A DNA stretch of 45,243 bases from Escherichia phage vB_EcoS-CHD5UKE2: the sequence record NC_073059.1; one strand, 5' to 3'. Shown in pieces: positions 5,858 through 39,605 of this stretch. Below the pieces are notes generated by a model. It was not told the origin of the DNA. It made no database searches and saw only the letters and a list, made by a program, of their open reading frames with translations. Every line of letters starts with the position of its first letter. Within the stretch, counting starts at the first letter, position 1. A program made the position numbers and the translations under genes.

Positions 5858-5887
5858 TTGCAATCCTGGTATTGGTTGCACTATATT
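5858..5887 (+). promoter_or_regulatory. Sigma70-like promoter for the plus-strand island
   Basis: -35 TTGCAA (5858..5863), 18-bp spacer containing ATTGGTTGCA, -10 TATATT (5882..5887); second TTGGTTGCA at 5886..5894. Confidence 0.5.
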
Positions 5888-5922
5888 GGTTGCACACCAA
5901 CAGAGATATGAAGGAAAACAAA

Positions 5923-6276: not shown

Positions 6277-7041
6277 ATGAGACTGACAAAAGACATTAAA
6301 AACCAGATTCTGGCTAACATCCTGCGCGGCCACGAAATCGCGACTGAAGCCAAATCAATCATGATGGACTCTCGCGACCTGGCGTACGCAATTACGCTGG
6401 ACTGTATGCCAAAAGGCATTCACACGTTCGCCGAGCTACGCGCATATATCGCAGAAATCCGCGATAACCAGTCGCAGATGTACGGCGTCAGCGTTTACAC
6501 CGACAAGGCGACGTATAGCTATAACAAAGACCGTCAGAAAGGCATTGGACGCGTTTACTGCTCCACTTTCGAAATCAACGCAGGCGGTAACATCCGTACC
6601 CTGCATATGAGCGGCGACGGATACCGCTACCGCCAGCACCGCGGATACTGGGAAGAAAAATATATGAATACGCTCGCGCCTGACGTTAGCGATATTGTAC
6701 CGGGGTACGAGGAAATTATGCTCGCGTCAGTATGTGAAGTGGATGAGGACGGAAAAGCGCTGCCGATATATCTACCACGCGGTCGCGTAGACTACCCGGC
6801 AGAGCATGATTTCTGCAAGCGCCTGGACCACAACGACAAGGCCCGCCGTGAATTGCGTGCGAAGTATGACGCGTTCAAACTAACCGTTACCGGCGTGCTG
6901 GATATGCACAATACTGACAAGAAGCTGATCGCGGCGTGGCCTGAAGTTGAACAATTCATTCCATACCCGGACAAGCCGAAGTCAACGGCAGTAGCGCTGG
7001 ATGTGAAGACGTTAAACGAAATCTGCGGTATTCCGCGCTAA
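6277..7041 (+). CDS. Hypothetical protein (island gene 2)
   Basis: 254 aa ORF with RBS GAGGAAACA; no recognised motif. Confidence 0.55.
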   Translation: MRLTKDIKNQILANILRGHEIATEAKSIMMDSRDLAYAITLDCMPKGIHTFAELRAYIAEIRDNQSQMYGVSVYTDKATYSYNKDRQKGIGRVYCSTFEINAGGNIRTLHMSGDGYRYRQHRGYWEEKYMNTLAPDVSDIVPGYEEIMLASVCEVDEDGKALPIYLPRGRVDYPAEHDFCKRLDHNDKARRELRAKYDAFKLTVTGVLDMHNTDKKLIAAWPEVEQFIPYPDKPKSTAVALDVKTLNEICGIPR

Positions 7042-7098
7042 CAAAAGGGGGCTGTAATGGCCCCGAATTATCGTCTACATAACCACGAGGAAATTAAA

Positions 7099-7614
7099 AT
7101 GATTAAAGTTAACTACGCCGATCTTAAAGCCGCTACGATATGCGCCGCAACTAATGACGTCCGATACTTCCTAAATGGTGTATTTTTCGACGAGAAAGGA
7201 TACATCGTGGCTACAGACGGTCACCGTTTGTTCTGCGGGTCTGCGGTTGTACCAGAAGGTGAAAGTAAAATAGTATCAATTAAAGGCCGCTTACCTACTA
7301 AATTCGAATACTGCAACATAGACGGCACCTCCGCCGCGTTCTTCGATAGTAAAGACGTATTAATAGCTACCATACCCATCGAGATTGTAGACGGGCTATT
7401 ATTTCCAGACTGGAGAAGAGTTACGTCTTTCATCAGCAATAAAGTGGAGGCTATCGGGTTTAACGGGGCATACCTATCCGACGCCTGCAAAATTGCTAAA
7501 TTGTTCGACCGTAAGTTTGAGGGATTAAAACTGGAATTTCAGGGAGTAGACAAGGCAACACGCGTGCTGTTCAAAGGAGGTGCCTTTTTAGTTATCATGC
7601 CGATGCGTTTGTAG
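7099..7614 (+). CDS. Truncated DNA polymerase III beta sliding-clamp (DnaN) homologue, about 171 aa
   Basis: Recalled DnaN signatures: DVRYFLNGVFF, ATDGHRL, FPDWRRV, AIGFNGAYLSD and C-terminal VIMPMRL (E. coli beta ends VVMPMRL); ATG 7099 with RBS GAGG; ORF-track start at 7057 lies in a hairpin. Confidence 0.6.
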   Translation: MIKVNYADLKAATICAATNDVRYFLNGVFFDEKGYIVATDGHRLFCGSAVVPEGESKIVSIKGRLPTKFEYCNIDGTSAAFFDSKDVLIATIPIEIVDGLLFPDWRRVTSFISNKVEAIGFNGAYLSDACKIAKLFDRKFEGLKLEFQGVDKATRVLFKGGAFLVIMPMRL

Positions 7615-14090: not shown

Positions 14091-14300
14091 ATTTAATTAA
14101 TTCCTGATTAGTGGACCGTGGACAATATACCACGGTCCGTATGGCGGCGGGCTATATCAATTCGCAAATAACCATGCCGATAAAAGCCGCGGTGGTCCAG
14201 ATCGCTAATACCCAAATATCTTTACGTGCCATCTTGATTACTCCTCCAGTTGATTGGTTGCAGTATGGCCCCTGTGTTGGTTGCGAGTCAAGCAATAAAA

Positions 14301-20827: not shown

Positions 20828-20857
20828 TTGACACCCCGCCTGCAACCAATCTATTAT
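20828..20857 (+). promoter_or_regulatory. Sigma70-like early promoter for the plus-strand replication block
   Basis: -35 TTGACA (20828..20833), 18-bp spacer containing TGCAACCAAT, -10 TATTAT (20852..20857). Confidence 0.6.
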
Positions 20858-31503: not shown

Positions 31504-31970
31504 AACTACTGATTTGTGATCTGGATGGCGTTATTAATGGTTCAAGTGATGCGCGTGCTGACCTGGTGCCCGGCATAAAAACCAAATCAACATTTTGGGC
31601 GAAGTGGCACAAAGCACACGTACGCGAAGACCTTAACATGGATATGTTGCCGCTGCTGCGCATGTACAAAGGGCAAGGCTTCGAGATAGCGTATCTGACT
31701 AACCGGCAGCGCGAATGCTGGGATACGACCGCCAAGCAATTGGAAGTATTCCCGACGGGCCGGTTGTTCATGCGCCACATGCTGGACGACACCCCACCGC
31801 CAGAATTTAAAGCATGCGCGGTGGTCAAAATGGTTTGCTATGCGGACGTGTCCGAACTGGTCATCATTGAAGACTGCGCTAAGAATATTGACGCCATCCG
31901 TCGGGCGTGCAGCGATATGGTCCCTAAAATTTATTCTATAAACGTAGCAAAATTTACTTGCAACCAATAG
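31500..31970 (+). CDS. HAD-superfamily phosphatase (possible nucleotidase)
   Basis: N-terminal LICDLDGVI (HAD motif I DxDG); 156 aa. Confidence 0.5.
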   Translation: MKLLICDLDGVINGSSDARADLVPGIKTKSTFWAKWHKAHVREDLNMDMLPLLRMYKGQGFEIAYLTNRQRECWDTTAKQLEVFPTGRLFMRHMLDDTPPPEFKACAVVKMVCYADVSELVIIEDCAKNIDAIRRACSDMVPKIYSINVAKFTCNQ

Positions 31971-31987
31971 GTTGGTTGCACTATAGT
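31958..31987 (+). promoter_or_regulatory. Sigma70-like promoter with perfect inverted repeat TGCAACCAA-N5-TTGGTTGCA
   Basis: -35 TTGCAA (31958..31963), 18-bp spacer, -10 TATAGT (31982..31987); the palindrome spans both. Confidence 0.55.
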
Positions 31988-32668: not shown

Positions 32669-33244
32669 ATGTACGGCGAATACGAAATAACCGGTAAACA
32701 ATTCCACATAGCGGCAATGTTGGCGAGCGTCGAGTTTGACCAGTGGCGATTAAAGTCTGACGCGTGCAAGCAAAGCCGACTTGTCGGTGTGCTGGGCGAG
32801 ATGTTTGCTGGCATGTACCTTGAAGGGCAGGCAGGCGGGCGTAGTTGTATCCCGCAAGGCTTGCTTATGCGTACCGGCCTGTTTAGCGCCAATACTATCG
32901 ACCGCGGCGATATTATCATGGTCGGTAAACGCAAGGTTAAGTCCGGCCCCGACTTCCGTGAGCACATGATTGATGCTGTCTGGACCTACGAGGTCAAAGC
33001 CACCAGCGGCATCCGTCGCGGACTGGTAGAGGCGCGTTGCGCTCGCGAGTATCTCACCCGTCGGGTTGCCGGTGTTATCCTGGTGGGCGTATCGTTCGGG
33101 CAACATAGCGCACACGGCGTGATTGAGGATATTGCGGAACCATACGTGATTGTCAACGACTGGCCTCTGGTGGAAGTGGAGGGCAAGGAATATTACGAAA
33201 GCCCGTTAGTACGGCGCAAAATGGACTGGGAAAACTCAAACTAA
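32669..33244 (+). CDS. Hypothetical protein, possible PD-(D/E)xK-type nuclease
   Basis: 191 aa; weak D...EVK-like motif (DAVWTYEVKAT); RBS GAGGG. Confidence 0.35.
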   Translation: MYGEYEITGKQFHIAAMLASVEFDQWRLKSDACKQSRLVGVLGEMFAGMYLEGQAGGRSCIPQGLLMRTGLFSANTIDRGDIIMVGKRKVKSGPDFREHMIDAVWTYEVKATSGIRRGLVEARCAREYLTRRVAGVILVGVSFGQHSAHGVIEDIAEPYVIVNDWPLVEVEGKEYYESPLVRRKMDWENSN

Positions 33245-33248
33245 AAAA

Positions 33249-33264
33249 GGGGCCGTATGGCCCC
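33249..33264. terminator. Bidirectional terminator between the convergent early block and the tail-fibre gene
   Basis: ggggcc-gtat-ggcccc flanked by an A-run and a T-rich run. Confidence 0.55.
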
Positions 33265-33270
33265 TTCTCA

Positions 33271-34860
33271 TTACTTACCTTCCAGCTTTTCTACTTTCTG
33301 CAACAGGTGAACGAAGGCGGCGCATAGATCCATCAACAGCACGTTACTGTCAAGCGACAGTACATCGTCGGTGTATCCGATCTCCTTTTGCTCGACAATC
33401 TCGTTCCCTTCCTCGTCCACGCCAACAACAACGTCCTCGTAGATTCCGTGTCCTGGCAGCAAGTGCACATATTCCGGGTCAATCATGGCCAGGTCCTGCG
33501 CGATAAGGCCGTAACGCTGTACGTCCGACTCCTTATACTTAAACATAGCCGGTAGCCATTGCCGTACTCGGTTGTAACTTTCCGCGCCGTCCGTGTATTT
33601 GATTTCTTTCTTCACGTCCCGGTCTGATAGCGGTGCTTTCTGGAACTCCGCCGACGATGGGTTGCCGCTGTTACCCTGAATCAGACGCCCGTCCGGCAGG
33701 AAGCGGAATAGCGCCTCAGTTACCCCACTCTTCCACGCGTGGATCCGGTAGTCTGACATGTGGGTGTCACCCGCACGCACAATTCCTGCGCGTGTCCAGT
33801 CGGCGTACCATTTATGCATGGTGAAGCCTACCCAACTGTCGATTCCCATCGAGGCGTTTGATAGAATTAAGCCGTTAGCCTCCACTTCATTGAATGTTAA
33901 TGATTTGCCACCGTTCAGGCGTAATGTTGCGTGTTTAACGTTACTGTCATCGCCCACCCCCAGAATGTTGCGCGCGGTGTACTTGTCGGCAACGTCCGCC
34001 AGGTTCTGCGACTTCTGCATGAACTTAGTGGGGTCGATTGAGTTTTTGAAGCCTTCGGCTTCGTCGCGGTATCCCTGCGCTGCATCTCGGGCCGCTTGTG
34101 CGTCAGTCTTCGCCGTGTTGGCCTGATCTCGAATAACGCCAGTGTCAGTCTTAATCTGGTTGGTCTGGTCCTTGATGGCCTGCGTATCGGTCTTAATCTG
34201 GTCGGTTTGCGTCTTGATCGTATTGGTGGCGTCGTGGATAGCCTGCGTATCAGTCTTAATCTGGTTGGTTTGCGTCTTGATGGTATTGGTGGCGTCGTGG
34301 ATAGCCTGCGTATCAGTCTTAATCTGGTTGGTTTGCGTCTTGATGGTATTAGTATCGTTCTTGAAGCCTTCGGCCTCGTCGCGGTATCCTTTCGCTGCGA
34401 CCTCAGATGCGGCGGCTTGTTGTTGCAGGTTGAGCATTTCCACCGGGTCGATCTGCTTCATTAGCTGCGACAGGTAGCCCCACGACATACCCTGCATCAC
34501 TGTGCCGTTCGGTAACGTAACTGTGATTTCTTCAGCGTCGCCGAAGATTGCACGCCAGTTGTTCTCGTCCGCAATAAGCATACGCAGTGCTTTCTGTGCC
34601 TGGACTGTTACGCCCATCGTTGCCAGCGACATGGTATCGCGCGCAACGCCATCCCATGCGAGGCCGGATGCCGTTGGGCCGTCAAACGGCAGCACCAAAG
34701 TAAGCCCGGTGTTGCTTTCGATAGATTCAATCGCGATAGTGTAGGGGACTTGCCCCACTACGACAGAAAGGAAATCACCGGCTTTGAACGCCGAAAACGT
34801 CGTACCGGTCCCCGTTACCGACCGGCTGTTATTGGTTAATAAGATAGTACCCGCTGCCAT
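33271..34860 (-). CDS. Tail fibre protein with C-terminal intramolecular-chaperone (peptidase S74-like) domain
   Basis: 529 aa; RBS AGAGGA; three 21-aa shaft repeats (TQTNQIKTDTQAIHDATNTIK); C-terminal region (KKEIKYTD...GLIAQDL...LEGK) resembles the autoproteolytic chaperone of endosialidase/T5-type fibres. Confidence 0.55.
   Translation of the reverse strand: MAAGTILLTNNSRSVTGTGTTFSAFKAGDFLSVVVGQVPYTIAIESIESNTGLTLVLPFDGPTASGLAWDGVARDTMSLATMGVTVQAQKALRMLIADENNWRAIFGDAEEITVTLPNGTVMQGMSWGYLSQLMKQIDPVEMLNLQQQAAASEVAAKGYRDEAEGFKNDTNTIKTQTNQIKTDTQAIHDATNTIKTQTNQIKTDTQAIHDATNTIKTQTDQIKTDTQAIKDQTNQIKTDTGVIRDQANTAKTDAQAARDAAQGYRDEAEGFKNSIDPTKFMQKSQNLADVADKYTARNILGVGDDSNVKHATLRLNGGKSLTFNEVEANGLILSNASMGIDSWVGFTMHKWYADWTRAGIVRAGDTHMSDYRIHAWKSGVTEALFRFLPDGRLIQGNSGNPSSAEFQKAPLSDRDVKKEIKYTDGAESYNRVRQWLPAMFKYKESDVQRYGLIAQDLAMIDPEYVHLLPGHGIYEDVVVGVDEEGNEIVEQKEIGYTDDVLSLDSNVLLMDLCAAFVHLLQKVEKLEGK
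34155..34356. repeat. In-frame tandem DNA repeats (63-bp unit, about 3 copies) inside the tail-fibre gene
   Basis: 34198..34260 and 34261..34323 are near-identical 63-mers; partial copies flank them. Confidence 0.8.
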
Positions 34861-34941
34861 AGCTGAATCCTCTTAAAATTGGTTGCATTCTTGATTGAGC
34901 GGTGCAATACTAAAACTCAACCAAATATAGGAGATGATAAC

Positions 34942-35163
34942 ATGAAAACTTTAATTATGATTTGTGCGGTCCTTTTGTCCGGTTGTGCTGTAGAACGCAA
35001 CAACGGCGATTGCATTACGGTTGCTTACGGTAGCTGCATGTTACGCTACGTTGACGGGCAAAAAGTCCCTGCCGGGGACGTGGACATGCGCTTCACGGGC
35101 CTATCTGCCGATAGCGACGGCAATTTCTCAGGCACTGTATCTGTTAAATCACGGGAGTGGTAA
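34942..35163 (+). CDS. Small lipoprotein, candidate superinfection-exclusion factor (Llp/Cor-like by context)
   Basis: ATG 34942 with RBS AGGAG; signal peptide plus lipobox LLSGC; 73 aa; placed beside receptor-binding tail genes on the opposite strand. Confidence 0.5.
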   Translation: MKTLIMICAVLLSGCAVERNNGDCITVAYGSCMLRYVDGQKVPAGDVDMRFTGLSADSDGNFSGTVSVKSREW

Positions 35164-35165
35164 TA

Positions 35166-36131
35166 ATGGGCGCTGGAATACTCATCGACTACAACGACGG
35201 ACGACCGATTATGGAGATAACTGCCGGTTTGCGCGCTCCGTCATACTGCACTACGTTTGATCAGCGCTGCCAGTCCGACAAGACGCTGACCATTAATACC
35301 CCGCTAACACCAGGGTCGGACCTTGTCGTTGCACTCACGCGCCCGGTAGAAGTGCTTGAGGTGTTCGACCAGACGCTGGTTCTCCCCGACCCGTTCTACG
35401 TGACGTCGGTACAGCGCAACGGGGATAGTGGAATTATCCTTCGAGGCGCGGACGCGCATAACGCATACAGCGGCCTCCCGCAATGGGCTGGTATAATTAT
35501 GGAAGTGCTGCCGGTGGGGTCACGCAATGCGGGCTTACTGGTGGCGAACTCGACAGACTTCACCGCGATTTCCAACGTGTCCCGGTTAATGACCTGCCGC
35601 TACGCGCAGCGCGTGCACGTGAACGGTAGTATGCCTTTGCCTGTGGGCGGTATCCCGTTCGCGCGCTGGGATAATGGCAACGTATCGGTAGGCTTCGATG
35701 GTAGTAGTATCATCGTCCGCAATTCGTCTTATGGCGGGATTGATGACGTCGGGGCCGAAGTGGACTTGGATCTGGTTATCTTCAACAATACGCCTCCATC
35801 ACCGGGGACTGGTATCACCATGACGAACAACCAGGGGCAGGTCACGTTCTCGACCGTTAACAAGCCGTTTGTGCTCAATTCGGTAATTAATATCGGCACC
35901 GGCGGTCAGAATATCGGTAATAGCCTCGTACAGCTTTCATATACCGGCGCGCTCATTGAGAACAACAGCGGCTACAACCACGTTCGAATGAACGGGATAC
36001 GCATGGCGGGCAACGTGGTTAGTGCGGCGCGTAATCGCGTAATCGGTAACTACTCACGGCAGCAATTCCAGATGCCTAACCGCAACATAGCTGTCCCAAC
36101 CCCGTTACTCGTCATACCTAACATGTATTAA
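35166..36131 (+). CDS. Hypothetical beta-rich protein co-transcribed with the lipoprotein
   Basis: ATG 35166 with RBS GGGAGTGG (ORF-track start 35157 is GTG); 321 aa, Gly/Asn/Ser/Thr-rich, no TM segment. Confidence 0.5.
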   Translation: MGAGILIDYNDGRPIMEITAGLRAPSYCTTFDQRCQSDKTLTINTPLTPGSDLVVALTRPVEVLEVFDQTLVLPDPFYVTSVQRNGDSGIILRGADAHNAYSGLPQWAGIIMEVLPVGSRNAGLLVANSTDFTAISNVSRLMTCRYAQRVHVNGSMPLPVGGIPFARWDNGNVSVGFDGSSIIVRNSSYGGIDDVGAEVDLDLVIFNNTPPSPGTGITMTNNQGQVTFSTVNKPFVLNSVINIGTGGQNIGNSLVQLSYTGALIENNSGYNHVRMNGIRMAGNVVSAARNRVIGNYSRQQFQMPNRNIAVPTPLLVIPNMY

Positions 36132-36135
36132 AAAA

Positions 36136-36151
36136 GGGGCCGGATGGCCCC
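36136..36151. terminator. Bidirectional terminator between the convergent J-like gene and the plus-strand insert
   Basis: ggggcc-ggat-ggcccc with flanking A and T runs. Confidence 0.55.
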
Positions 36152-36158
36152 TTCTCAT

Positions 36159-39100
36159 TTACCACGTCCCGACTTTAACCCTTCCCCCTCCAGGTAAGGG
36201 CACGTTGACGCCCGTTGCGTCGATCGTAACGGACCCGCCGGAGAATCCGAAATTACCCGTAGTCGCGAACAAGTTGCCGCGTACCGTTACGTTGTTGAAC
36301 TCCGCCCCGCCATCCTTCGCGATTCGCCAGCCGCTGTTACCCGGATTCCAGTTATTGGATTGCAGCGTGTCCGTGATCTGTGCGAAGTTGATGGACGCAT
36401 TCTTGATGCGCGCCGTGTCAATGTACACCTGACCGCCGTCGACGATAAACGCGGACGAAAGCGACCCATTCGACGGGTGCATGATGTAGAACTGGTCCGC
36501 CTTGAACGCGATGCGAGATTTAACCGCGCCACCTTCCGCCACAACGGAAAGCTGCATACCGGCATCATAGTAAGTCCCGTTATACGTCACGCCAGCTTTA
36601 AGGCTGTAGGTGGCGCTACCGCCAGCATGGTTAAACGAAGACGTCATCTTCTGCTCGATCGCTGCGGACTGCTGACCGAACTGTGCCGCTACCTGGGTCT
36701 TATACTCAGCCAGCGCGCCCGCTACGTCTGCCGTTGCCGTTTGTACCTGCTGGATGGCAGCTTCCTGTTCCCCGAACTTAGCGGCAACAGTTTGTTGATA
36801 CTGGGCGAACGCTTGTTCGTGCGTGCTTTGCGCAGTCTGCAACGTGTGGATTGACGCTTCCGCATCGTCAAGGCGCGTGCCGATCAGCGTTTCCAGTTGC
36901 GCTACGGCCTCGTTTGCGTCCACCGCAACGTTGTACGCCACCTTGATTTCCGCATAAATCCCTTGATACTCGGAGCGGGCGTTAAACAACTGCTGCGCGT
37001 CGGTGAGCATGGCCTCGTAAATGCCTTGTGGAATGGTGTCGATTGCTTCCTGGAAGTGTTTACCGTCCTCGGAAGTCAAGAACTCGTCATCAAGCCCCTG
37101 CATGTACTCGTCAACTTTGTCACTCACCTGACCGTCAAACGGGTCTGACCAGTCCGACAGGTTGCCGATTTTATCCGCTACGCGTGCGCGCAACTGCTGG
37201 TAGATCCCGAATTCCAGCGACGTTTGCGCATAGTCCGACCCCGGATATGGGACGTTGGTCAAGAATTTCCATTCAGTCTCACCCAGCTTGCGCACTTCAA
37301 GCTCGGTATACGAAATATCCGTCGCGGCGTTGTTGTGATTCCACTTCCACAAAATTTGATGAAGGCCCGAAATCGCGTTGGTAATGATTGGCGCGTTTAG
37401 CCCGCCAAGACGGCCCTCGACCGGCGTGATTTCGGATGACACCCACGGGGATGAAATCTCGCCCATACCGATAGCGCGGACGCGTGCCTGGTAGTTACCA
37501 GAAAACACGTTCGGGATGTGCGCGCCGTTCGACGCCGTGCGGGGGATGTTAACCCAGTCGTTGCCCCACTGTACTTCCAGATTCTGCAAGCTGGTACGTC
37601 GCCACTGGATTTCGTACACAACGGCATCCTTCACCGGCGGAAAAACAATATCTACGTTGGTGATTAGCTGGCCTTGCGATGAAATCTGCGACGGGGTGAT
37701 AGTAACGGATTCTGGCCCCTTCATCACGCCGTCCGGCACTTGAGTGAAGATACCCGGATCAAGACGCGCGCCATTATCAACGGCATCATATTTGCTATCG
37801 TTGTACTCAATCCCGCGCACCGAAAAAGTGCTGGTAGCGTCGTCATATTCCAGGTCTGTGATGCGGAACTTCTGCAACTGGATATCATCGCCATCAACGC
37901 AAAACGGCTGATCGGGAATCGGGTCGGAGTCCAGTGCGGTTTTTAGCGTGACCTGGTTGCCGTTGACGCTGGCAATCTCGCGAGTCTCCACATTACCGCT
38001 CTCGGTGCGCACCAGGAATTTATCACCAGGGCGGAACGTGATTTCGCTGTCCGTGTTCAGCACGGTGCGCGTGCCTGGATCTGACAACAGGCGTCCGCCG
38101 CGTGTCTCGAAGCCGCCAGAAATGTTAGTATCTGCGATCGCGACTACGCTCCCCGGAATAAAGAATAACCCCTCCATGCCAACCTTAAAGCTGACTTGCT
38201 GGTCAAGCTGGTTGGAGATTAGCGCCCAGTGCCCGCGGCGTTGCGCTTCAGATTCTCGCGTACAGCCGATCGCCGTGATATCAAGGCGGTTAATCTTATG
38301 GCGGCGCACCAGTTCGACACGTTGACCCGTTGCGATGGCGTCATCATAGTGGTTCTTCGGGTTGCCGTAGGCTACCGAGAACGTGGAATACCGAGTTTTC
38401 TGGCTTCCCGATGCGTAGTCGAATCGACCATCAATGACCGAGGCGTTGGTGATAGTATGCGATACCGCTGCGACAGGCTGGTCACTGACGATATTCAACA
38501 TCTGGTTGCCCCACCAGGTCATGCCCGCAAAGATAGCCGCTAAATCCTTCAGCACGGTCCAGGCGTCGGTCTGCGACTGAATGTACATATCATTCTTAAA
38601 TCGGATTTCCTGACCGCCGTTGCCGTCACTGACCATCTGATCGCAGCGCTGCGAAATCTGGTAGAGTGCGTAACGGTTTAGCATTTGTGGCTTGACACGA
38701 CGACCGAGGCCGAAGCGCTCAGTAATACAAATATCGTACCAGTGCCACGCAGGGTTATCCGTCCAGGCGCGTTTAAATGTGCCGTCCCAGTCACCAGAAT
38801 AGGTATGATTAATCGGGTCGTAGTTGTTCGGCACCAGCACTTTGCGGCCTTTGCACTTGATGGACACACGCGGGATGTTCTGGAACGCCTTAGCATCGAA
38901 CTCCACGAACAACAGCGCGGTTAGCGGGTATCGCAGGCGGGCGTCGATAATCTCAGTAATGGATTGTACCTGAATATCGTTGACCACTTTTGCCGATGTG
39001 GAGTCTGCCGTTGTGCGGTGCACCTCCACGCGCCAGCCGGTATTCACGTTCGGCGGTAATTCGATGCGGTGATCGCGCTCATACAGCGACATTGTTTTAC

Positions 39101-39605
39101 CAACGGCAGCGAATGTAAACTCCCGCGGATCAGCATTGTCTGTATACACAACAATTTTATAGTCGATGCGCCCGCCCACCAGGTTGCCATTATCTTCGTT
39201 GGTGTACAGGGCCGGAATACCGATTCGAATGCGCACCGCATCCAGACTGGTATCCGAAATCTGGCGGACCCACGGCTGGCCCTGTTCCAGTTTTACGCCT
39301 ACTGTTTGCTCGCTTTCCACCGCTGAAAAACCGTGAATCACATCCTGGTGCTGCGTGCCGGGGCGGAACTCCACACGCGCGCCGGGGAAGTTATCCGACA
39401 GGTCGGCGTTCTGGATCGGTGTGCCGTCCAGGTATACACGCTGCCGTAATTCGTTAGGGTCGGGAATGCCTTCAAATTCGCCCTCGCCCAGTGCGAGCAA
39501 GATGCGGATTTTAGCCAGCGAATGCAGGCTATCAGGCGTCTCCTGTGGGGTGTGCTGTTTGCCACCGCCGCCTTTATGACCCGTGACGTCGTATACAATC
39601 GTCAT
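36159..39605 (-). CDS. Central tail fibre / host-specificity protein (lambda gpJ-like)
   Basis: 1148 aa; last gene of the lambda-like M-L-K-I-J order; ATGA coupling to the I-like gene. Confidence 0.7.
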   Translation of the reverse strand: MTIVYDVTGHKGGGGKQHTPQETPDSLHSLAKIRILLALGEGEFEGIPDPNELRQRVYLDGTPIQNADLSDNFPGARVEFRPGTQHQDVIHGFSAVESEQTVGVKLEQGQPWVRQISDTSLDAVRIRIGIPALYTNEDNGNLVGGRIDYKIVVYTDNADPREFTFAAVGKTMSLYERDHRIELPPNVNTGWRVEVHRTTADSTSAKVVNDIQVQSITEIIDARLRYPLTALLFVEFDAKAFQNIPRVSIKCKGRKVLVPNNYDPINHTYSGDWDGTFKRAWTDNPAWHWYDICITERFGLGRRVKPQMLNRYALYQISQRCDQMVSDGNGGQEIRFKNDMYIQSQTDAWTVLKDLAAIFAGMTWWGNQMLNIVSDQPVAAVSHTITNASVIDGRFDYASGSQKTRYSTFSVAYGNPKNHYDDAIATGQRVELVRRHKINRLDITAIGCTRESEAQRRGHWALISNQLDQQVSFKVGMEGLFFIPGSVVAIADTNISGGFETRGGRLLSDPGTRTVLNTDSEITFRPGDKFLVRTESGNVETREIASVNGNQVTLKTALDSDPIPDQPFCVDGDDIQLQKFRITDLEYDDATSTFSVRGIEYNDSKYDAVDNGARLDPGIFTQVPDGVMKGPESVTITPSQISSQGQLITNVDIVFPPVKDAVVYEIQWRRTSLQNLEVQWGNDWVNIPRTASNGAHIPNVFSGNYQARVRAIGMGEISSPWVSSEITPVEGRLGGLNAPIITNAISGLHQILWKWNHNNAATDISYTELEVRKLGETEWKFLTNVPYPGSDYAQTSLEFGIYQQLRARVADKIGNLSDWSDPFDGQVSDKVDEYMQGLDDEFLTSEDGKHFQEAIDTIPQGIYEAMLTDAQQLFNARSEYQGIYAEIKVAYNVAVDANEAVAQLETLIGTRLDDAEASIHTLQTAQSTHEQAFAQYQQTVAAKFGEQEAAIQQVQTATADVAGALAEYKTQVAAQFGQQSAAIEQKMTSSFNHAGGSATYSLKAGVTYNGTYYDAGMQLSVVAEGGAVKSRIAFKADQFYIMHPSNGSLSSAFIVDGGQVYIDTARIKNASINFAQITDTLQSNNWNPGNSGWRIAKDGGAEFNNVTVRGNLFATTGNFGFSGGSVTIDATGVNVPLPGGGRVKVGTW

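Follow-up and report, generated by a model that had tools for sequence, protein, structure and literature searches.

A probable LptD-type receptor-binding protein and cognate exclusion lipoprotein encoded by a receptor-recognition cassette of Escherichia phage vB_EcoS-CHD5UKE2

Here we describe a two-gene locus in the tail module of Escherichia phage vB_EcoS-CHD5UKE2, analysed within the complete 45,243-nucleotide stretch of DNA in record NC_073059.1 (hereafter the window). The locus very probably encodes an LptD-type receptor-binding protein (RBP) and its cognate periplasmic exclusion lipoprotein, arranged as one operon that represents a Dhillonvirus receptor-recognition cassette. We base this reading on the homology, architecture, synteny and purifying selection observed in the present analysis, together with what has been shown for orthologues, namely the structures of the RBP and of Rtp45 on LptDE and the LptD dependence of phage Oekolampad (PMC12685063, PMC8594841); for the present phage we infer dependence on LptD, an exclusion phenotype, attachment of the RBP to gpJ, and the promoter and its timing. 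The cassette is already known and has been structurally characterised in an orthologue. What the analysis provides is a confident assignment of function to two genes that are labelled “hypothetical protein”, “lipoprotein” or “membrane protein” in GenBank, a terminal receptor, LptD, that is predicted from sequence alone, and, as small additions, the apparent breakpoints of the cassette (in signal-peptide codons and at the gpJ 3′ end) and a set of conserved tail-proximal segments in the RBP. As both the BASEL and the LptDE cryo-EM papers point out, the essential and conserved nature of LptD makes phage proteins that bind it attractive for phage therapy and for probing the LPS translocon (PMC8594841, PMC12685063).

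Gene layout between the lateral tail fibre and gpJ

The open reading frame listing and direct reading of the sequence place two plus-strand genes between two minus-strand tail genes, a lateral tail-fibre gene on one side and a lambda-J-like gene on the other. The features of the locus and its flanks are as follows.

33271..34860, minus strand: lateral tail fibre, 529 aa; coiled-coil repeats form the shaft, and the C-terminal domain is an intramolecular chaperone
34878..34886, minus strand: GCAACCAAT box (ATTGGTTGC on the plus strand), exact match
34883..34911, plus strand: putative sigma-70 promoter of the lipoprotein-RBP operon, with TTGCAT at 34883-34888, a 17-nt spacer and an extended -10 element, TGcAATACT, ending at 34911
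34942..35163, plus strand: predicted superinfection-exclusion lipoprotein, 73 aa (PF24052; 9RPS_D; Oekolampad/Rtp45 homology)
35166..36131, plus strand: predicted LptD-type RBP of the central tail fibre, 321 aa, DUF6453 (PF20051; PDB 9RPT/9RPW/9RQI)
36134..36153, no strand assigned: bidirectional intrinsic-terminator hairpin, AAGGGGCC-GGAT-GGCCCCTT, common to the convergent RBP and J-like genes
36159..39605, minus strand: J-like central tail-fibre/tail-tip protein, 1148 aa, presumed to carry the RBP

The lipoprotein gene and the lateral tail-fibre gene diverge from an 81-bp spacer, the start of the 321-aa protein follows the lipoprotein stop after 2 nt, and the convergent stops of the 321-aa protein gene and the J-like gene lie 27 nt apart, with a GC-rich hairpin occupying the gap. 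A strand-opposed gene pair between the tail-fibre and J-like genes, divergent from the tail fibre, had been proposed in the initial annotation, and all of its structural elements are indeed present where they had been placed. The J-like protein matches FNIII-A_GpJ (5e-39), Phage_Tail_Tip (4e-38) and Phage-tail_3 (1.8e-16) in Pfam and phrog_31, “central tail fiber J”, in PHROGs. The lateral tail fibre matches phrog_1980, “tail fiber” (5e-119), in PHROGs and Peptidase_S74 (8.8e-7) in Pfam, and its gene carries a 63-bp tandem repeat.

The window represents a near-complete Dhillonvirus genome, and the locus is 99.9% identical to that of Escherichia phages vB_EcoS_WF5505 and vB_EcoS-101114BS4 (genus Dhillonvirus), the records of which label both proteins only as “hypothetical protein” or “lipoprotein”. 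A lipoprotein gene followed by an RBP gene, convergent with the J-like gene, is also found in Oekolampad, HK578 and Rtp (rtp45, rtp44, rtp43). The pair was initially termed an “insert”, a word that does not fit what was found: Maffei et al. 2021 described “bona fide RBP loci” adjoining gpJ in Drexlerviridae, Dhillonvirus, Nonagvirus and Seuratvirus, and the locus corresponds to this standard exchangeable site (PMC8594841), in an orientation like that of Oekolampad, HK578 and Rtp. Within the BASEL collection the allele type at the gpJ-adjacent RBP locus matches the terminal receptor without exception (PMC8594841), and for the Dhillonvirus isolates Bas83-85 LptD was predicted as the target from the RBP locus (PMC11990801).

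It is unusual for a structural tail gene to be opposed in strand to the rest of the tail module and to lie together with an exclusion gene, and this counts against the preferred reading.

The receptor-binding protein and its exclusion lipoprotein

The 321-aa protein, whose gene has a Shine-Dalgarno sequence GGGAG 8 nt upstream, is rich in glycine (10.3%), valine (10.0%), asparagine (9.3%) and threonine (6.9%). It matches PF20051 (DUF6453) far above the cut-off (E 2.7e-118) and aligns over residues 1-321 with the “Tail fiber protein” chain of PDB entries 9RPT, 9RPW and 9RQI (E 3.2e-183), of which 9RQI was deposited as LptDE bound by phage RBP. These entries and 9RPS are the work of Dunbar et al. 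2025, in which the RBP of Oekolampad (Bas18, Dhillonvirus) penetrates far into the LPS translocon LptDE from the outside, the translocon being in an open state (PMC12685063); the terminal receptor of Oekolampad is LptD (PMC8594841). Identity to the Oekolampad RBP (bas18_0025) is 85% over 321/321 residues, compared with 33% to Rtp44, in which the N-terminus of the RBP is strongly conserved. The LptD-specific RBP family has been delimited by >30% identity and >99% coverage to a member with an experimentally shown receptor (bioRxiv 10.64898/2026.04.02.716166), a threshold that the full-length match to the Oekolampad RBP exceeds, and the gene is also placed as expected for that family, adjoining a gpJ-like gene and paired with an exclusion lipoprotein gene. 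Gln299, the sole LptD-contact residue named in the available text of PMC12685063, where in Oekolampad it hydrogen-bonds LptD Ser350, is conserved. Of the two roles suggested initially for the larger protein, that of a receptor-binding protein gains support from its similarity along the full length to an RBP solved on LptDE (PMC12685063), and that of a second exclusion factor is not supported.

The lipoprotein gene has its own Shine-Dalgarno sequence, AGGAG, 8 nt upstream. Its product begins MKTLIMICAVLLSGCAV, a short and basic N-terminus that leads into a hydrophobic core (mean Kyte-Doolittle 3.0, residues 3-12), and the signal peptide occupies residues 1-14 (MKTLIMICAVLLSG|CAV), with an L-S-G-C lipobox, Cys15 and Ala at +2. 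These features, with the open reading frame, confirm the 73-aa LLSGC lipobox lipoprotein that had been noticed at the outset. Asp at +2 marks a lipoprotein for Lol avoidance; here the junction (MKTLIMICAVLLSG|C15-A16) has the lipobox cysteine of a Sec/SPII substrate and lacks that Asp. The protein matches Pfam PF24052 (Phage_lipoprotein) over residues 3-73, far above the cut-off (E 3.6e-21), phrog_4281 (unknown function) in PHROGs and, in a search of solved structures, chain D of PDB 9RPS, which is Rtp45 bound to LptDE (E 2e-8). Direct alignment gave 99% identity to the Oekolampad exclusion lipoprotein bas18_0026, with the single change A56S, and 40% identity to Rtp45; Cys24 and Cys32, a putative disulfide pair here, correspond in the alignment to Cys30 and Cys38 of Rtp45, which are joined by a disulfide. 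Rtp45-mediated resistance was reportedly described in the Rtp genome paper.

In 9RPS, Rtp45 occupies a periplasmic site on LptDE, flanked by LptE and LptM, and moves extracellular loop 4 of LptD by as much as 20 Å, such that RBP binding is blocked (PMC12685063). The initial suggestion of superinfection exclusion at the phage's own receptor is supported by the similarities to bas18_0026, Rtp45 and 9RPS_D, which make this function probable for the present lipoprotein. The accompanying idea that the receptor is “masked” needs correcting, in that Rtp45 does not cover it from outside but acts from the periplasmic side of LptDE by displacing extracellular loop 4 (PMC12685063). The exclusion lipoprotein of Oekolampad could not be expressed (PMC12685063), and its binding to LptDE is itself deduced from Rtp45 at 35-40% identity.

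In the mechanism that we propose, the 321-aa protein would be the terminal RBP and would enter the LptDE lumen from outside, leading to irreversible adsorption. The 73-aa protein would be exported, lipidated at Cys15 and, because Asp is lacking at +2, delivered to the outer membrane's inner leaflet. From there it would bind periplasmic LptDE and shift LptD extracellular loop 4 such that the RBP could no longer bind. Phages that use the LptD receptor would then cease to adsorb to infected cells and, later, to their debris. Expression would be from a small two-gene operon, with a 2-nt gap, a Shine-Dalgarno sequence for each gene, a sigma-70-like promoter conserved within the 81-bp spacer and a hairpin end in common with gpJ, and the cassette would be swapped as a unit between small siphoviruses.

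Both open reading frames are real genes, as indicated by purifying selection relative to Oekolampad and by strong Pfam matches (E 3.6e-21 and 2.7e-118). Values of dN/dS against Oekolampad are 0.006/0.451 for the lipoprotein gene and 0.104/1.169 for the RBP gene, the latter being far more diverged at both kinds of site (dS 1.17 versus 0.45; dN 0.104 versus 0.006), and the gap in dS suggests separate recombination histories for the two genes. The RBP differs from the solved Oekolampad protein by 47 substitutions, mostly in the ordered, receptor-facing part. Residues 1-25, 113-142 and 206-234 are absent from the cryo-EM density and hence modelled (PMC12685063 and PDB entries), and the tail-proximal part of the RBP has been described as very poorly ordered (PMC12685063); these three segments probably constitute the tail-proximal part. 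Substitutions relative to Oekolampad affect 6% of the disordered segments versus 18% of the rest (p = 0.007), and three-way invariant positions make up 48% of the disordered segments versus 24% elsewhere (p = 0.0002), a pattern that would fit an RBP whose receptor-facing body evolves faster than a conserved surface on which the J-like protein docks. As most of the 47 substitutions are receptor-facing, the affinity of this RBP, or its sensitivity to particular LptD variants, may differ from that of the Oekolampad RBP.

Other identities have to be weighed for both proteins. The 321-aa protein could instead be absent from the virion and act on the host as a membrane or accessory (“moron”) protein, perhaps as a second exclusion factor, co-expressed with the lipoprotein. 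This would agree with its assignment to phrog_1265 (“membrane protein”, in the category “moron, auxiliary metabolic gene and host takeover”), with the name “membrane protein” carried by its homologues in RefSeq records, and with the location of its gene, which shares an operon with an exclusion gene and is opposed in strand to the tail genes. However, neither a signal peptide nor a hydrophobic segment was found in the protein (maximum 19-residue Kyte-Doolittle mean 1.23), and cryo-EM shows the 85% identical orthologue bound to LptDE at its extracellular face (PMC12685063), a site that can be reached only from outside the cell. Alleles of this family track receptor specificity without exception in the BASEL collection (PMC8594841). 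We regard a moron function as very unlikely, and reject the “membrane protein/moron” label in view of the solved orthologue and the lack of a hydrophobic segment.

For the lipoprotein, it is extremely unlikely that it is a Cor- or Llp-type factor blocking FhuA or another TonB-dependent transporter in place of LptD. FhuA-type Dhillonviruses do have a Cor-like gene in exactly the equivalent position, with the same promoter and first codons, and the lipoprotein weakly resembles phrog_1119, “Cor superinfection exclusion protein” (E 6.4e-4), but this similarity spans only residues 1-30, essentially the signal peptide, where the DNA is common across cassette types. The mature lipoprotein matches PF24052 and Rtp45, its partner RBP is of the LptD type, and the PDB search returned no T5 Llp structure at E values up to 10; membership of the Cor (T1/phi80/N15) or Llp (T5) groups was rejected, given that the resemblance is confined to the signal peptide. 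Many small outer-membrane lipoproteins encoded by phages are o-spanins, and a lysis component of this kind would suit the size and lipobox of the present protein. Such a role is hardly conceivable for a homologue of Rtp45, which was solved in complex with LptDE, and it was rejected on genomic context, with the lysin ~24 kb away in a near-identical record and no i-spanin gene adjacent to or embedding the lipoprotein gene.

Cassette exchange and comparison with known systems

The locus is one allele of an exchangeable RBP cassette and not a foreign insert. In the phage collection, ~60 records carry the present cassette allele, and ~90 further records, nearly all of them from Escherichia phages of Dhillonvirus size, lack this allele but retain the tail-fibre and gpJ flanks. 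JLBYU60, which is FhuA-dependent (PMC10373560), belongs to the latter set. This FhuA-type phage is like the present one in its genomic slot, promoter spacer, first signal-peptide codons and exclusion-gene strand, but encodes a Cor-like lipoprotein with a mature part unrelated to that of the present lipoprotein, and has two unrelated open reading frames (100 and 224 aa) that are co-oriented with gpJ and not downstream of the lipoprotein gene. The 81-bp spacer and the first ~seven signal-peptide codons are nearly identical across Dhillonviruses with three cassette types, and for this reason one recombination boundary seems to fall inside the lipoprotein signal-peptide codons; the other seems to lie at the gpJ 3′ end or the terminator.

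The closest characterised counterpart, that of Oekolampad, shares with the present phage its genus, the gene order and orientation, the protein lengths of 73 and 321 aa and the location of the hairpin, and is set apart by the 47 RBP substitutions, which are concentrated outside the tail-proximal segments, and by a different neighbouring lateral tail fibre. Rtp, a member of the Drexlerviridae and thus of a different phage family, also has the lipoprotein-then-RBP pair convergent with rtp43, with Pfam families in common, and Rtp45, the protein solved on LptDE-LptM in 9RPS, has the same C-x7-C cysteine spacing. However, the lipoprotein and the RBP share only 40% and 33% identity, respectively, with their Rtp counterparts, the two Rtp genes overlap where the present genes are separated by 2 nt, and the Rtp upstream spacer is 342 bp long and unrelated in sequence to the 81-bp spacer.

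A likeness of logic exists with T5 pb5 (oad)/Llp, in which a siphovirus central fibre is tipped with a dedicated RBP, accompanied by an adjacent small outer-membrane lipoprotein, and in which Llp binds the periplasmic face of the receptor used by the RBP and prevents the RBP from binding (PMC9586334). In contrast to the present pair, the receptor is FhuA, a TonB-dependent transporter, and the T5 proteins have no detectable sequence relationship to those described here. The means of exclusion also differ, with long-range allostery for Llp and physical displacement of a loop for Rtp45.

Transcription signals in the spacer and at the convergent gene ends

The sigma-70-like site at 34883-34911 is nearly invariant in Oekolampad, HK578 and JLBYU60. 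In a consensus promoter scan of 33000-37000 it fell below the threshold, its -35 element matching at only 3/6 positions, and promoter-like sites in this interval were no commoner than in shuffles. We have read the promoter from the letters of the spacer, and its conservation suggests that it drives the lipoprotein-RBP operon.

A sequence box at the promoter had also been noted initially, and GCAACCAAT is present at 34878-34886 on the minus strand, that is, as ATTGGTTGC on the strand of the lipoprotein gene, where it overlaps the -35 element of the putative lipoprotein promoter. On the other side, the start codon of the divergent tail-fibre gene is 17 nt downstream of the box, which also lies just upstream of the tail-fibre ribosome-binding site. 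It is kept in the spacer of four Dhillonviruses irrespective of cassette type. The window holds 15 exact copies versus ~0.3 expected, often paired and sometimes inside good promoters: the copy near 20842 falls within the spacer of TTGACA-18-TATTAT, and an inverted pair at 31960-31979, one half of which has a single mismatch, lies over TTGCAA-18-TATAGT. No consistent placement of GCAACCAAT relative to -10 and -35 elements was found in the window. Because the copies occur on both strands and upstream of structural genes (about 5871-5893 and 14253-14284) as well as replication genes, GCAACCAAT does not define an early class, and the “early-type” label initially given to the promoter is not established.

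The enrichment of the 47 RBP substitutions in the receptor-facing part, alongside a partner lipoprotein that is essentially unchanged, leads to a further and more speculative possibility: that the RBP allele is a natural specificity variant, tolerating LptD loop variants, or mutations to resistance, by which Oekolampad is blocked. In addition, the operon may be controlled via GCAACCAAT, whose copies sit at promoters on both strands, as the site of an undescribed Dhillonvirus regulator that would time the RBP and exclusion protein apart from the rest of the tail module. We consider this combination rather doubtful.

The claim of a bidirectional terminator was upheld by folding on both strands. 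The hairpin at 36134-36153 folds with -15.7 kcal/mol on the plus strand (z = -3.1) and -21.9 kcal/mol on the minus strand (z = -4.4), and is followed by a run of six T residues on the minus strand and by a weaker T-rich tail, TTCTCATTT, on the plus strand. It was not called in a consensus terminator scan of 33000-37000, probably due to A-T and G-T pairs that let the stem extend into the T run, and was recovered by folding. A hairpin occupies the equivalent place in Oekolampad, HK578 and Rtp, with the HK578 and Rtp versions differing in sequence.

Conserved N-terminus of the RBP and its database labels

35166-35267 (+), residues 1-34 of the receptor-binding protein (RBP)

Among LptD-type RBPs this N-terminus is the most conserved part, with 14 of residues 1-25 invariant as far as Rtp44, the RBP of phage Rtp, and it is the only portion matched by a gene of Citrobacter phage HCF1 (76% identity, residues 1-34). 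Conservation reaching Rtp44, together with an HCF1 match confined to these residues, suggests that the segment is a common adaptor docking onto the lambda-J-like central tail fibre. In databases the RBP family (35166-36131) is labelled 'membrane protein; moron' in PHROGs (phrog_1265) and 'membrane protein' in many RefSeq records. This is a mislabelling, as the 321-aa RBP lacks any hydrophobic segment and the orthologous protein is a receptor-binding protein of solved structure.

Repeat copy-number variation in the lateral tail fibre

34174-34350, tandem repeat with a 63-bp (21-aa) unit, in the tail-fibre gene 33271-34860 (-)

The repeat comprises 2.8 copies with a 96% match and lies within the lateral tail fibre, in its coiled-coil shaft. 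This fibre is 529 aa long in the window. Dhillonvirus 101114BS4 is otherwise 99.9% identical, but its fibre has 508 aa, one repeat unit fewer, and the length of the shaft therefore varies with repeat copy number.

Homologues of the exclusion lipoprotein in podoviruses

L007 3468-3749, phi32_106 of phiEco32, homologue of the 73-aa exclusion lipoprotein

Such homologues, with about 33-41% identity, occur in phiEco32-like podoviruses of roughly 77 kb (Kuravirus records). In phiEco32, phi32_106 lies among small genes with a tRNA-Arg alongside, and no DUF6453 gene is adjacent to it. The podovirus homologues might deny competing siphophages access to LptD; alternatively, LptD may be used by the podoviruses too.

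Distribution of the GCAACCAAT 9-mer

Exact GCAACCAAT sites in the window
Sites 1-8: 5871, 5885, 14253, 16915, 17470, 17501, 17591, 17873
Sites 9-15: 17908, 20842, 27341, 30282, 30299, 31960, 34878

The box reported in the initial annotation is present in 15 exact copies across the whole window, against an expectation of ~0.3. Most are intergenic, both strands are used, and copies are frequently paired at a spacing of 14-35 bp. Some overlap good sigma-70-like promoters: near 20842 the 9-mer falls inside the spacer of TTGACA-18-TATTAT, and at 31960-31979 an inverted pair, with a single mismatch in one half, covers a sigma-70-like promoter. The 9-mer looks like a putative regulator site, or else a promoter element of Dhillonviruses.

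6277-7614 (+), another opposite-strand gene pair within the structural module

This pair is annotated in a near-identical record as a hypothetical protein and a 'DNA polymerase III beta subunit', and the adjoining divergent spacer holds a GCAACCAAT pair (5871-5893).
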